From Octopus vulgaris (taxonomy: Eukaryota): a stretch of 64,000 bases of DNA. This document shows positions 2,099 to 51,966 of this stretch, piece by piece. A program made the translations under genes and the position numbers. Numbering within the stretch: the stretch's first letter is position 1; every line of letters begins with the position of its first letter. The notes below the pieces were generated by a model. The model was not told the DNA's origin and did not search any database. It saw only the letters and a list, made by a program, of their open reading frames with translations. The stretch lies in assembly GCA_951406725.2 (NCBI GenBank), contig OX597818.1, forward strand, positions 1-64,000. The letters are read 5' to 3'.

Positions 2099-2548
2099 AT
2101 TTACATTATTTACAATTGACAGATATTTGTCCTCATCTTGTTTGTTGTTAACACAACATTTTGGCTGATATACTCTCCAGCCTTCATCAGGTATCTTAGG
2201 GAAATGTTGAACCTGAGTTCTCATTCCTAAGGTATTTTTCGACATTATTATTATTATTATTCAGGTCACTGTCTGGAATCGAACTCGGAATCTTGGAGTT
2301 AGTAACCCTTAGGCATATGGCGAAGTGGTGACCTGAATGATGATAATGATAATAATAATTATAATATCGAAAAATACCTTAGGAATGAGATCCCAGGTTC
2401 AAAATTTCCTCAAGACACCTGATGTAGGCTGGAGGGTATATTAGCCAAAACGTTGTGTTAACAACAAACAAGATGAGGACAAATATCCGTCAATTGTAAA
2501 AAATGTAAATAATGTACATAATTCTTCTTCTCTTAAATATAGAACTGT
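2099..2548. mobile_element. tRNA-head + hammerhead palindromic element, copy 1
   Basis: ~170-nt inverted arms, central tRNA-like fragments, HHR-like motifs at 2150-2195(-) and 2414-2459(+); cttgacatt repeated at both flanks; homologous to 50097-50580. Confidence 0.85.
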
Positions 2549-3133
2549 ATTGTCTTGACATTGTAATGTAGTTGTAAATGAATGTCACCATCAAACAAGC
2601 GGTGTCATTCATTTCCAGACATTTGCGAAAATATGTCCAGCCATTGGAAAATATTATCCGATTTGGGAGCAGATAATGATTGGTGACAGGAAGAGCACCC
2701 TAATGAATTCCATCAATCTCAGACAACTATGGTGAGACTCTCAGTATGAGTATCTACTCATATATTCTGGAATATAATGATGTTACAGAAGGCCCACTAC
2801 CTGCAATCATTAAATTGAGTAAAAATACATTACAAAAATGATACTGACCATAAATTAATAATCAAAAGAATGTTTATACTTAAGAAAATCTAATAATAGA
2901 AAAGAAAACATGTCATCCAAAATGCAATACAGAGAAATTCTTCAGTCAGTTTGGGAGCAACAGCTAACTGAAGTGTTCTCAATATTATTACAGCACTTAA
3001 GATGTACTTCACAATGTCTGTCATGAGCTGGGAAACCAGAAGGAATTTTTCAAACTTATCCTTTAGAAAAGAACAAATTTTGGTTTACTATGACTCTGCT
3101 TAAATTCTGTTTTGATATTAGCTCTAAAAAACA

Positions 3134-3350
3134 GGGTGGTGAGCTGGCAGAATTGTTAGCTTGCTGGACAAAATACTTAGTGGTATTTCATCCATCTTTA
3201 AATTGTGAGTTCAAATTCTACCAAGGTTGATTTTGCCTTTCATCCTTTCAGTGTTAATAAAATAAGTACCATTTGAGAACTGGGATCTATGTAGTCAACT
3301 TACTCCCTTCCTCAAACTTGCTGGCCTTGTGCCAAAATTTGGAACAGATA
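3134..3350 (+). mobile_element. tRNA-derived SINE, family A
   Basis: ggtgagctggcagaa..gagttcaaattc head plus gcctttcatcctttc..ataaaataagtacc central domain. Confidence 0.85.
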
Positions 3351-3594
3351 TTATCTCTAGAAAATGACATTGCAAAGAAACTCTCATATGACAAAACTTT
3401 GCATGAATATGATGCTTGCAAAAAAAAAATAGAAAAAAGTATTTTGTAAAATGTGGTTCATTGTGTTAAAAATGAAAAATATTAACTGTAGATTTTGCTA
3501 GGTCTTATTTCATCAATCTGTGATGCATCATGCATATAGATAATGCCTAATTTTCATTATCACCAAACTTTTGTTATTATATTTCTATAGCAAT

Positions 3595-3788
3595 ACATTG
3601 ATCTTGTTTCAATAAATTTTGAAACTAATGATAAACTTACTCAAATAACTATTATGTCATTATGCAGCTGGTATGTAGAAAATAAATTAACTTGAAATTT
3701 TGATGAGAAGGTTTTAATTAAAAAAAAAACTGAGTTTGTATCACAGAACCAGGGATGATCACAGGCAGGTTTGTATCAAAAGGATAAC
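3595..3788. mobile_element. piggyBac-like MITE fragment
   Basis: Homologous to 50700-50902; both end near gtatcaaaagggttaa-like sequence (TTAA CCC-type terminus). Confidence 0.45.
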
Positions 3789-4394
3789 GATATAATAAAT
3801 TCTATGGCCTCTCAGACCTTGTTGAATGTTGACCAGTTGTTACTGATGGCGAAGAAGCCTCCACAATAGCTCAAACTTCAGGGTTCTAAGTGTTTCATGT
3901 TAGTTTGATGTATCATTTTTCTATTTTGCTAGAAATTTATTTTTCTTTTGAAAATCAATGGTAAGAATGAAGCTTGTCCACCCTATAAACAATTTCACTA
4001 ATCTGCCACTCTGAGTTGATATTTTATCGATTCTCCATTCCCCATCCCCCACCACCCCATGGAAAAACAAAGTTAACCTCAGTCTATGTAGGATTTGAAA
4101 TTCAAGCACAGAGAGTTAGAATGAAATATCACAAGTTATTTTGACTGATGCTCTACCAACTCTCTAAATTTGCTGTCGTCATGTTTAAATGAAAACCTTC
4201 CATCATATTTTATGAAAGAACCTTTTATATTTCAAACACCATATCAATAACAGCAAAGTTAACAAATGAAATTAATGAAAACTTTTCAGTAGCATATATC
4301 ATTAGAAAGGGTTAAAGAAGGAACCTAAAAGAATTTAGAGAATATATATATATATATATACATACACACACACAGCCACCTGGTATGGGGAAGG

Positions 4395-4626
4395 GGTGCA
4401 AGCTGGCAGAAACGTTAGCACGCCGGGCGAAATGCTTAGCGGTATTTCATCTGCCGCTATGTTTTGAGTTCAAATTCCGCCGAGGTCGACTTTGCCTTTC
4501 ATCCTTTCGGGGTCGATAAATTAAGTACCAGTTACGCACTGGGGTCGATGTAATCGACTTAATACCTATGTCTGTCCATGTTTGTCCCCCCTGTGTTTAG
4601 CCCCTTGTGGGTAGTAAAGAAATAGG
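4395..4626 (+). mobile_element. tRNA-derived SINE, family A, young CpG-rich copy
   Basis: gagttcaaattccgccgaggtcgactttgcctttcatcctttcggggtcgataaattaagtacc. Confidence 0.9.
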
Positions 4627-6400: not shown

Positions 6401-7389
6401 AGAATGTCTTTATACCAATTAGGTATCGAGTATATGACACAGTCTTTAAATAAATAAAATAACTATATAAATATCACACATACATATAGTAACTATACCA
6501 TTCATAAATATAGTGATACTGTGATGCAGTTACCAAAACTATCACACACTGTTTTTATATCTATATCTCTCTCTATATATATGTAGATAGACACAATGAC
6601 AACATGAGTGTGTGTTGTTTCAAATAACCAGTGAAGATTTCTTTCATTGTGTCTTAATGAAGGCAGAAAGAGCGATTAACAAATGGAGATTGTTACATCA
6701 ATGAAATAAGTAACTTATTTCCTGATAGCTTCAAGACAGTAAGAAAGAAGTGGTGATGGCCCACCAATAAATTACCATTCTGGAAATACCGTTGGACAAC
6801 CAACCAACAATCAATTCAATAAACTACTGTAAGAAAGTTTACCATGTCTGTTGCCTCTGGCTATACAAGATAAAGAACAACTATTCAGTAGACAATTTCC
6901 AAATGACAAAAGCGACACTATCCTACAGCTTGCATTGATTAAGTTATTTTATATAACAATGTTGAGTAAAATGGAAACTGCTCGAATTCCTTACCCCCCT
7001 CATCTATACCACCACACCCCACTTTCTCCTCGAGACTCAAAAGTAAAGAATTGAATTGAATTGGTAGTTTACTGAGGACCATCCGGAAAGGAAGCTGATA
7101 AGCACACTCAAGTCGGACTTCCATACACAGCAGTAAACAACATGGAGTTGATTAGTGTGATTATCATTAACATTGTTGTATGTAATATTGTTTATTGAAG
7201 TGAAGAATAAAAAATATAATTCTCTCAGACAAGAATTGTCTTCAGGAACAAAACAAGCAAAATTAATCTAAGTAAACATGTTGTACTAAATCCTTCACTG
7301 CAGTTCTGTTGGCTCTATGACTTGGTAGTACATCAAACACACACTCTCTTTCTCTCCTTCTGTACGTGACTGTGTGTGTGTGTGTGTTC

Positions 7390-8630
7390 ATGACAACCAT
7401 GATAGTAGATTCAGCCTCACCAGGTCACAGAAGGGAAGATCACCTTATCACTTCGGCAGTGAAGAAAAGCACCACTGAGTGCTGGAGTGGCTGGACCATA
7501 CCCACCAAGGACCCTTAGAACAACAATCAGGTGAAAAATTGACTGCACATGCAATAGGGGCTAGCATAAGAATCACCTTAAAAAACCACATAGTTAAGTT
7601 TAACAGGCAACTATACATGCAGGTTCATGGTGCAGCCATTGGTGTCAGTTTGACTGGAGATGTAGCTGGCATCTTTATGACCTGGTGGAACAGAAAACTT
7701 AAACAATACTTAGCAGAACAATCCACAACTGTTTTGCTTTACTGTAGGTATGCAGATGAGATTAATATTCTAGTTAAGACAAACTCTAGTAAGTGTAATG
7801 TAGAAACTGAGAGGAGCATCATGGAGAGCTTCCAGCACACAGCTAGCTCCATCCATCGAAGTATCAAGGTAACTATAGATTATCCCACTAGGTACCCTAA
7901 CAATAGACTCTCTGTCCTTGATACTGAACTTTAGTTAGAGACTGTGACAACAGAGTGCAGCTCCCCCACTCCTATTACATGAAACCATGGCTTCTAAATA
8001 TGTTTTTCACAAGAACTTAGCTTTATCAAACAACATGAAAATCAACATACTGATAGCAGACAAAGTTAGGATAATGAATAGCATGTCCCCACCCCCTATG
8101 CAACCCTATGAAACAAACAAAGAAACATGTACAGAACTTCATGCACCACATGCAATTCTCTAGATATGACCAAAAAGATAGGATTCAGGTATACAGGGGA
8201 GTTAGAAAGCAGTTAGCATCATTTGCAATGAAACCAGTGGTACCTGCCCTGGATACAGAGAGCTCGTGACAAAGCAAACAGAGTGAACACATGGTACAAG
8301 GCCGACAAATATCAAGGAGTGATGTTTGTAGAGGCCACAGCCCATGAAGAACTAGCTCACAGATTTAGGAAAGCTCTGAAGGAGACCAAACTCAGCATTA
8401 AGATCACTGAAAAGCCAAGACCAGCCTCAGATTGCCCAACAATACAACCTCTTTAAAAACCTGACAGTTCTACTGAATTTTTTGTGTGCGGCATGGTTAC
8501 TCTTCGCAAATGTTTAATATAATGGCACTTGAAATGAAAAAGAACAATTACATTGTAAATTCTACACTGATGAAAACATTAAGATGCTTAGATCAGAAAT
8601 TTTGAAAATTAAAGGTGTCTATTTACTTCT
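7390..8630 (+). pseudogene. Decayed Penelope-like element (RT, thumb, 3' end)
   Basis: LYMQVHGAAIGVSLTGDVAGIFM, YCRYADEI and NRLSVLD match PLE RT motifs; CTGATGA..GAAA HHR-like relic at 8563-8619. Confidence 0.8.
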
Positions 8631-49672: not shown

Positions 49673-50096
49673 CATTTCTTTCTGTTCCTGTCTTCCAAAT
49701 CCACTTGCAAGGCTTTGATCAATCCAAGACTATAGTAGAAGACACTTGCCCAATGTGCCATGTTGTAGGACTGAACCCAAAACCATGTGTTTGGGATGTA
49801 AGCTCCTTAAACACACAGCTTCATCTGTGCCTGTATATAAAATAATATTCCATCCTTTATATATCATTACATCTAATATAAATTAACTTTATTACTTGCA
49901 AATATTTAATAAATAGCTCAGTTTTTATTTTAATATCAAAATATTTCTCAAAGAATATTAAGTTTATTAATATTATGTTTGTGTTCAGATTTTGGTGAGA
50001 ACTGTGTCCTGTTAACTGTTCCAGTGCAGTTGAAATGCCTACAGTTTTGTTTTATAGCTTGTGTTCTTTTCTTAGTTGGTTTAATACATAAAATAT

Positions 50097-50241
50097 ATTT
50101 ACATTATTTATATTTGACGGATATTTGCTCTCATCTTGTTTGTTGTTAACACTATGTTTTGGCTGATATACCCTTCAACCTTCATCAGATGTCTTGGGGA
50201 AATTTTGAACCAAGGTTCTCATTCCTAAGGTATTTTTTTGA

Positions 50242-50280
<39 letters not shown>

Positions 50281-50580
50281 GGTCACTGCTTGGAATCGAA
50301 CTCGGAATCTTGGGGTTAGTAGCCCGTGCTCTTAACCACTACGCTATATGCCCATGACCTCAATAATAATAATATAACAACAACAACAACATCAAAAAAA
50401 TACCTTACAAATGAGAACCCAGGTTCAAAATTTCCCCAAGACACCTGATGAAGGCTGGAGGGTATATCAGCCAAAACATGTTAACAACAAACAAGATGAA
50501 GACAAATATCCGTCAAATATAAATAATGTAAATAATATAAATAATGTACATAATTCCTCATCTCTTAAATATAGAACTGT
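50097..50580. mobile_element. tRNA-head + hammerhead palindromic element, copy 2
   Basis: Full tRNA-like head 50285-50353(-) with A box and B box (GAGTTCGATTCC); HHR-like motifs at ~50148-50193(-) and 50440-50482(+); ataaaatatatt repeated at both flanks. Confidence 0.88.
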
Positions 50581-51966
50581 ATTATAAAATATATTCCTTT
50601 AAATATCTCTTTGTATTTCAAACATCTAAATTTTTATTGTCCCAGATCAGCCCTGATCCAACAAACATATGATTAATCCTTTTATTACCATATTTATTTT
50701 GAGATGCCTTGTGTCTCTTTCAATTAGTTTTAAATATAACAAAGAATTTAGTAAAATAACTTAGTTATCATTCAGCTGGTGTTATGAACATAAATTGTGA
50801 CTAAGGTTTGGTGGAAGATTTTAATTGAAAACTTATGGAAACAAGACAATTGTGCTACAGAGCTAGAGGCAGTTTCAGCCAGGTTGGTATCGAGAGAGTT
50901 AAATATATTTCAGTTATGATCATCTTGTTTTTATATAGGTATCATGAACTTCTCTATCTAATGTAGCCTTCTCTTTTGTGATTTAAGGGAGATTTTGGCT
51001 GCTATTTCTAGGGACTTAAGAGACAATGTGTGCATATAATTATCATTCTTTCACCTTTTTCTTGTTCCAGTCATTAGACTGTGGTCATACTGGGGCACCA
51101 CCTTGAAGAGTTTTAGTTGAATGAATCGATCCCAGTACTTATTTTTCTGGCAAGTCTGGTATTTATTCCATTGGTCTCTTTGCCAAACTGCCAAAACAAA
51201 AAAATAAATAAATAGATAATAAATAAATAACAATAAAAAAAAATTGGAAAGACCAGTTTTAATGAATATGAAACACATCCAATACAATAAATTCCCCAAT
51301 ACAATCTGTATTACATCTCATTCATATAAATAATCTTGTCATGGTTTCTACAATGAGATGTTCCATCAAACACTAACCGATTTACAGATTGTATTAGGTA
51401 TATTTTATTGGGGAACTAACTCTAGATCTTATCCTTGCTATCATCATCACCACCACCACCACCACCACCATTATCCTCATCAAGCTTTACAGGAAGGGAA
51501 AGAGTCTTAATTTTTTGGAAGTGGTTGAGAAAAAAAAAAGAGCAAGATGTTAGGAGCCAGGTGGGAATATAGTTCAAAGTAGGGAGTTAAGGAGGGATCA
51601 GGGATAGGTGTGCATGTGTGTACATGTATAGGTATGTATGTGTTTTGATATGGGCATAAGAAGAGAGCAGTGTGTGCGTGTTTTGCAGGGGCATGTCTGT
51701 GTGTAGAGGTGTACAAGTGTAGAAGTAAAATGACATGAATTAGTGGTGGGGTGAGGAGTCAGTAGTTTGTATAATTGCATTGTGTGTGTAAGAAAAATCT
51801 AGAAGTGAGGGGATGCGACTGCATGCAAGTGTGAAGTGAAAGAGAAAGCAAGAGAAATGTTAGGTGTGTATATATCTGTATCTATATACTGCTCTCGTGC
51901 TCTCTCTCTCTCTATTGATCTATATCACTAAATATATATTTATATATACACACATATATATATATA

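Follow-up and report, generated by a model that had tools for sequence, protein, structure and literature searches.

The closest described systems are Poseidon of Anolis carolinensis (PAc; PMC11167929) and the rotifer elements Pen2 and Pen3 (PMC3846280), both Penelope-type elements (PLEs). In the parts of these papers that concern structure and insertion, the elements have one open reading frame (ORF) for a reverse transcriptase (RT) with a C-terminal endonuclease, a terminal repeat (pLTR) that takes in the start of the ORF, and a hammerhead ribozyme that overlaps the first codons. The 5' pLTR is inverted, a tail of 30-40 nt is present on one side only, the target duplication measures 8-13 nt, and hammerhead cleavage is not required for insertion; the octopus element analyzed here resembles them in structure, its C-terminal endonuclease being a putative one, and probably also in inserting without cleavage. 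Inverted pLTRs and tails of PLEs are also treated in sections of PMC8557442 and PMC3846280. The experiments described for the anole element show that it cuts both target strands and primes at two internal sites bounding the tail, that it needs RNA up to +172 of the ORF and ~55-60 nt beyond the priming sites, and that its hammerhead lies over the start codon with its cleavage dispensable for insertion (PMC11167929). The minimal hammerheads described for PLE pLTRs (PMC4209133) have CUGANGA and GAAA boxes, an extra base before helix II, a short helix I and a palindromic helix III, all of which recur in the octopus family, although the octopus helix II is predicted to have 5 bp with a 10-nt loop; in Schistosoma, pairs of such hammerheads lie on opposite strands 100-700 bp apart (PMC4209133).

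The promoters of PLEs are barely characterized, and Pol II is taken to be the polymerase of autonomous retrotransposons; Kojima argues that autonomous LTR elements must rely on it (PMC10886601). Where the sources on PAc, Pen2 and Pen3 deal with promoters, these are TATA/Inr-like or TATA-less, and neither tRNA nor Pol III is mentioned there. Unlike these elements, the octopus pLTR starts with a tRNA-derived A/B-box module, at which most copies begin.

Partial likenesses are found elsewhere. The schistosome SINE-like repeats SM-alpha and Sj-alpha also join a Pol III-type promoter to a hammerhead in one short repeat, but in the descriptions available they are non-coding, often tandem, carry a canonical hammerhead and have no link to a PLE ORF (PMC6765202, PMC8490949). 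Cassandra, Helenus and Ajax (TRIMp3) have a small-RNA-derived Pol III promoter in the terminal repeat as well, but are described as non-autonomous LTR elements, whereas the octopus element encodes its own RT-endonuclease (PMC10886601). Animal non-LTR retrozymes are likewise short hammerhead units derived from PLE pLTRs; they differ in forming tandem head-to-tail arrays, and the account of their structure describes no tRNA head (bioRxiv 10.64898/2026.07.22.740005).

The window is a stretch of 64,000 nucleotides of Octopus vulgaris DNA (GCA_951406725.2, contig OX597818.1, positions 1 to 64,000, forward strand). The feature at 50097..50580 is a back-to-back pair of pLTRs from a common, now broken, protein-coding element of the Penelope class. 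Taken as a whole, the favored reading, to which a probability of about two in three is given, is that the pair consists of pLTRs of an autonomous Penelope/Poseidon-type element whose tRNA-derived module is likely its Pol III promoter. The anatomy given in a preliminary description of this DNA, namely two arms, a tRNA-like head, a hammerhead-like motif, a one-sided extension and a flanking 12-nt repeat, was recovered in the sequence, as shown in Table 1.

Table 1. Features of the insertion near 50 kb and of a related insertion in the same window.
Feature	Position	Strand	Basis
Second head-to-head insertion of the same pLTR family, with a 9-nt direct repeat	2099..2548		
Left copy of the 12-nt target-site duplication	50088..50099		sequence
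Inverted pLTR arm lacking the tail; complete up to base 1 of the head	50096..50353	-	
Decayed minimal type-I hammerhead of the minus arm; AAAA for GAAA, helix II and triplet changed	50149..50192	-	family column counts
(AAT)n spacer, variable in length	50245..50279	-	
tRNA-derived head, likely Pol III promoter; no cloverleaf	50280..50353	-	
B box of the minus-arm head	50303-50292	-	
A box of the minus-arm head	50346-50336	-	
Tail-bearing pLTR arm, 5'-truncated at the head end	50355..50580	+	
Predicted start ATG; in ORF-linked copies it opens a frame through the hammerhead into the PLE protein	50411..50413	+	
Decayed minimal type-I hammerhead of the plus arm; AAAA, 3-nt deletion over the cleavage triplet	50441..50482	+	
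PLE "tail", a piece of the 5' coding sequence of the ORF between two preferred 3' ends	50545..50580	+	
Right copy of the 12-nt target-site duplication	50584..50595		sequence

The minus arm runs from the head at 50353 through (AAT)n, the body and the hammerhead-like motif, and ends near 50096 without a tail. The plus arm keeps just 6 nt of the head (50355-50360), followed by (AAT/AAC)n and the body, and its extension reaching 50580 is absent from the minus arm. The right 12-nt repeat begins 3 nt past the end of the tail, and those 3 bases agree with how the element itself continues into the ORF. The hammerheads of all four arms in the two insertions are broken; all four read AAAA in place of GAAA, and the plus arm at 2099-2548 has an altered first core box. 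The suggestion that AAAA arose through CpG decay fits the family data, because CpG sites are changed in ~20% of arms, compared with 4-5% at other sites.

The genome search covered 2.8 Gb in 227 contigs. The intact 33-nt hammerhead core gave 2,819 exact matches, against 0 for the reversed control, and 22-mers of the ORF side, head and body gave 919, 2,931 and 7,993 matches, respectively, as counts uncorrected for the match rate of each pattern. The count for the body and the non-CpG divergence of the arms, ~4%, imply a family of ~20,000 arms; a random 400 kb sample contained 3 family matches, too few for a tight copy number. Tandems and ORF-linked pieces occur among the copies, most of which are short units starting at the first base of the head. 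The locus sets discussed below were picked by similarity or motif, and many of the loci come from a single contig.

Judging from the linkage seen on both sides of the unit, it is very probably the terminal repeat of an autonomous Penelope/Poseidon-type element. A partner with the same hammerhead and tail, as the preliminary description anticipated, was found, and it contains the entire unit, head included. A Penelope/Poseidon-type RT fragment lies upstream of a head in locus L035. Among 30 loci collected by the ORF 3' end, the head stands directly behind the ORF stop in 27, one more has ~10 nt of the head and two are without it; this set includes the query locus (L161) and near-identical duplicates (L185/186/188). 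Among 30 loci collected by the ORF 5' end, the body and tail stand directly before the ORF in 28, beyond the part used as the query. Two copies (L317, L340) run from head +1 into the ORF, and three tandems (L323, L326, L339) continue through the head into the ORF end of the preceding unit; the frame from the body ATG places the predicted start of the ORF within the pLTR. The order of the unit is ORF end, head, (AAT)n, body with the predicted start codon, hammerhead, tail and ORF start. The frame from the body ATG through the hammerhead into the conserved PLE N-terminus is open in L320, L331, L340 and others. The tail is indeed PLE-derived, being coding sequence at the start of the PLE ORF. A 9-nt unit varies in number at about body 125-155 (window 50510-50550), with spacers of 24, 33 and 42 nt in 107/120 arms, so that the reading frame is kept.

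The element has a single ORF with a PLE-type RT. The longest stop-free frame seen, of 569 aa, has a weak RVT_1 match (E 2.7e-6, just under the cut-off) and 2,989 PLE-type homologues, and one relative (P0003) is 55% identical over the RT-endonuclease region with a similar N-terminal stretch. A GIY-YIG-like motif is present at the C-terminus in translation, with no Neptune zinc-finger linker seen and no match to PF01541. Since none of 150 scored ORF matches is intact, the family looks extinct in this genome. A second Poseidon family was sought as an in-genome control, and 9/9 loci checked, of 59 matches, belong to the same family.

Neptune-type PLEs, which were found with PF01541, were rejected as the partner, as they have a different hammerhead core, (TA)n flanks and no shared 3' end in 30 loci. 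At L067, L072 and others, such elements keep 781-aa frames open in many cases, their hammerhead core is a variant one and their flanks are (TA)n; this group looks recently active. Decayed pieces of a Neptune-type ORF lie in the window at 36760-38200 (-).

Mobilization of Penelope type, as proposed from the window, is borne out by the inverted partner, the one-sided tail and the target duplications, which are known PLE features. Exactly one tail of 30-40 nt accompanies the inverted copy in 66/72 head-to-head pairs, and a flanking direct repeat of at least 8 nt is found in 39/72 of them, compared with 2% of mismatched flank pairs. The 3' ends are bimodal, at body 141-159 and 181-185. This pattern of a head-to-head pair, a one-sided tail and a target duplication matches anole Poseidon and is ordinary for a PLE.

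In the proposed mechanism, transcription of a master copy would begin at the head, pass through the hammerhead without its being cut and continue into the ORF, and the RT-endonuclease of the element would nick both target strands. Priming would occur internally at two sites, one for each tail end, by analogy with the in vitro experiments described for anole Poseidon (PMC11167929), and each cDNA would run back toward the 5' end of the RNA at the head. Head-to-head joining of the two cDNAs would then leave a tailed arm and a tail-less one within a short target duplication. The loop orientation at 16 junctions, 8 of them obscured by CpG decay, gave too few clear cases to separate fold-back from double priming. 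Poor translation of uncapped Pol III RNA speaks against the use of Pol III. Either the Pol III RNA or a read-through RNA made by Pol II could have served as the message for the protein.

The tRNA-derived A/B-box module inside a PLE pLTR is the new part of the finding. The head belongs to the unit as a rule and is not an occasional insertion, since the body follows it in 28/30 and 24/30 loci chosen by the head. Aligned with 35 distinct tRNAs of the same genome, it gives z values of 5.7-6.9, best to Cys and Arg tRNA genes, with more than one isotype possible. ARAGORN calls no tRNA in the window and, at a relaxed threshold, makes one doubtful call in 6 head stretches, and the head forms no cloverleaf. 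ARAGORN and Rfam give no tRNA call; the head's likeness to a tRNA is drawn from its A and B boxes and from the alignment with tRNA genes. RNase P processing at the start of the head was set aside, as the sequence has no acceptor stem. At locus L355, six or more Cys-type tRNA genes or pseudogenes lie clustered in a span of 3 kb.

No A/B-box motif is present in the metagenome relatives (9 loci at 30-55% identity, none close). In the papers searched, as distinct from the repeat collections Repbase, Dfam and SINEBase and from the octopus SINE article of 1994, no PLE with a tRNA-derived pLTR appears. Another tRNA-derived octopus repeat, SINE OK, is said to have been described by Ohshima and Okada. 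The octopus SINEs OR1 and OR2 (Ohshima and Okada 1994) are tRNA-derived repeats cited as CORE-SINEs (PMC4824008, PMC4758252), and were compared by their description in these sources. The main text of a 2026 octopus repeat annotation mentions neither hammerheads nor ribozymes; its supplements may list the family (PMC13282606).

Pol III probably started transcription at the head, as the positions of the 5' ends suggest. Among 62 arms that reach head +6, 44 end within -8..+6, 11 at -30..-9, and 7 extend into the ORF. Truncation inside the ORF end amounts to 0.047 per 15 nt (13 events), and the rate at the head end is ~15 times that upstream. The peak at the first base of the A/B-box module suggests a Pol III start, since that is the position Pol III would give; to this extent the Pol III transcription put forward in the preliminary description is likely. 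RNA-seq from three runs shows equal strands, with 87-89% of reads continuing into other sequence, copies inside other transcripts and no pile-up of starts.

The further claim, that the element is an autonomous retrotransposon with a captured tRNA promoter and that its whole 2.6-kb coding RNA is made by Pol III, is tentative and judged somewhat unlikely. The sense strand of 20 copies (32.8 kb), which amount to one effective sequence, has 15 runs of at least four T, whereas 72 are expected from mononucleotide and 42 from dinucleotide composition, and no TTTT is common to half of the copies across the 2.6 kb. Their density is 0.46 per kb here and, in the genome's Neptune PLEs, 3.4-7.8 per kb. Against synonymous-codon shuffles, the deficit is not significant in 8/8 copies. 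T-runs are likewise absent (0 in 1,126 nt) from an unrelated RT fragment in the window, and six metagenome relatives tested, none of them close, have T-runs at or above expectation. The apparent depletion of T-runs in the ORF is suggestive.

The head boundary is also a palindrome, which provides a second explanation for the 5' peak. The element may be an ordinary PLE read by Pol II, in which the tRNA piece came from a captured SINE head and plays no promoter role, and the palindrome stops reverse transcription or folds it back. The master sequence upstream of the head is indeed an imperfect inverted copy of the head start, palindromes are described at the pLTR 5' ends of rotifer PLEs (PMC3846280), the account of Drosophila Penelope gives it an internal TATA-less promoter (PMC2377424), and three copies run through the head into the previous unit, so that longer RNAs existed. 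However, 11/27 arms without an inverted partner end at -3..+2 and carry no hairpin arm, and reverse transcription would be expected to stall near +10, at the stem's 3' foot. Symmetric junctions, in small numbers, show both loop orientations on tailed and tail-less arms, and the scarcity of T-runs leans toward Pol III. Transcription by Pol II with a passive head is regarded as unlikely.

The preliminary description had proposed a separate SINE with a borrowed PLE tail, and this part of it does not stand: the whole unit, head included, is the pLTR of the autonomous PLE itself, and the short and ORF-linked copies share their variants. A SINE of that kind would be a non-autonomous lineage sharing only its 3' end with its partner, whereas here the whole unit is in the autonomous element. 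Of 364 arms, ORF-linked ones number 73 and head-start ones 70; the two groups show subfamily variants in like proportions (e.g. 15/58 vs 21/69, 11/53 vs 10/62, and 23/38 vs 31/67). Among 261 columns compared between ORF-linked and short copies, two differ at p<0.01, and both are explained by the choice of loci. The divergence is 0.050 in ORF-linked arms and 0.036 in head-start arms, the latter having been chosen partly for similarity. Because they share the subfamily variants of the ORF-linked copies, the short copies look like by-products, apparently cDNAs of the 5' end of the element RNA primed at the first pLTR-ORF junction, in a modest sample.

A tRNA SINE in its own right, with an end taken from a PLE and propagating from its own short copies by means of the PLE enzyme, would account for the predominance of short, head-start copies with target duplications, for the head-plus-body unit with intact A and B boxes and no TTTT in 324/364 body arms, and for head counts threefold above those of the ORF side. 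The head is carried by the autonomous element itself, however, and no diagnostic variant separates the classes in the 261 columns beyond the two just mentioned. The short copies also stop at the tail, whereas the anole protein is described as requiring RNA ~55-60 nt past its priming sites (PMC11167929). By this analogy, because they end at the tail without that downstream stretch of the ORF, they are probably dead-end by-products and not a self-propagating SINE, and an independent SINE is considered very unlikely. A young independent SINE sub-lineage may exist among the short copies.

A minimal type-I hammerhead with GAAA, as expected from the decayed arms of the window, is present in the family: of 256 arms not selected on the hammerhead core, 185 have GAAA and 41 have AAAA. 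By the description of minimal type-I hammerheads in PMC4209133, the column majority has CUGANGA, GAAA, a 4-bp helix I, a 5-bp helix II and a palindromic helix III with NUH. The hammerhead is fully intact in 72/283 arms, and helices I and II form when a real family copy is folded; no hammerhead or tRNA match came from Rfam when the window, the 50,097-50,580 feature and an intact copy were scanned. Just 3' of the predicted cut, 5' ends are about four times as frequent as on either side (17 in 10 nt vs 0.30-0.55 per nt, after 21/126 arms were dropped as internal deletions). Because a 6-nt palindrome and microhomology to the head sit at the same place, this excess is a hint of occasional cleavage and no proof of it.

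Self-cleavage was also thought to define the unit, which is not what the copies indicate, as inserted arms hold sequence on both sides of the cut site. The whole uncut hammerhead lies upstream of the ORF in 18/30 ORF 5' ends, and it is probably cut in a minority of the element RNAs. A retrozyme-like RNA, with its unit set by hammerhead cleavage and circularization, is highly improbable. The intact family core and the enrichment of 5' ends just 3' of the cut would suit it, but the cut site lies inside most arms, that enrichment falls on the palindrome and the microhomology to the head, and the copies are dispersed and head to head rather than arrays of cut-to-cut monomers. Tandem hammerhead monomers without an ORF, by which non-LTR retrozymes are recognized, contrast with the dispersed, head-to-head and ORF-tied units of this family.

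Several other elements were noticed. A second, unrelated minimal hammerhead motif at window 35060-35112 (-), with a 4-bp helix II and the same AAAA decay and followed by a CTTC-rich stretch, is probably the end of another PLE-type family. An RT fragment with a weak RVT_1 match lies at window 7479-7934 (+), which we take to be of a Naiad-type PLE from its appearance. Locus L091 has tandem 359-bp repeats at 3080-4520 and 7330-7700, each with a canonical-looking hammerhead and in two orientations, forming a non-LTR retrozyme array. A repeat of ~750 bp recurs in or beside the (AAT)n spacer of the element (L014, L015, L048, L060, L152, L172, L190), which suggests a preference for AAT microsatellites.

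If true, a tRNA-type promoter in the pLTR of a PLE blurs the divide between SINEs and autonomous elements, and thousands of copies that would pass for SINEs in pipelines are stubs of pLTRs. If the whole RNA were made by Pol III, the element would have shed ~10,000 SINE-like copies from its own 5' end, which would make the partner element itself a source of SINE-like repeats. From the many copies, RNA starts, priming sites and possible hammerhead cuts can be read in the genome, and this bears on the role of the hammerheads of PLEs.
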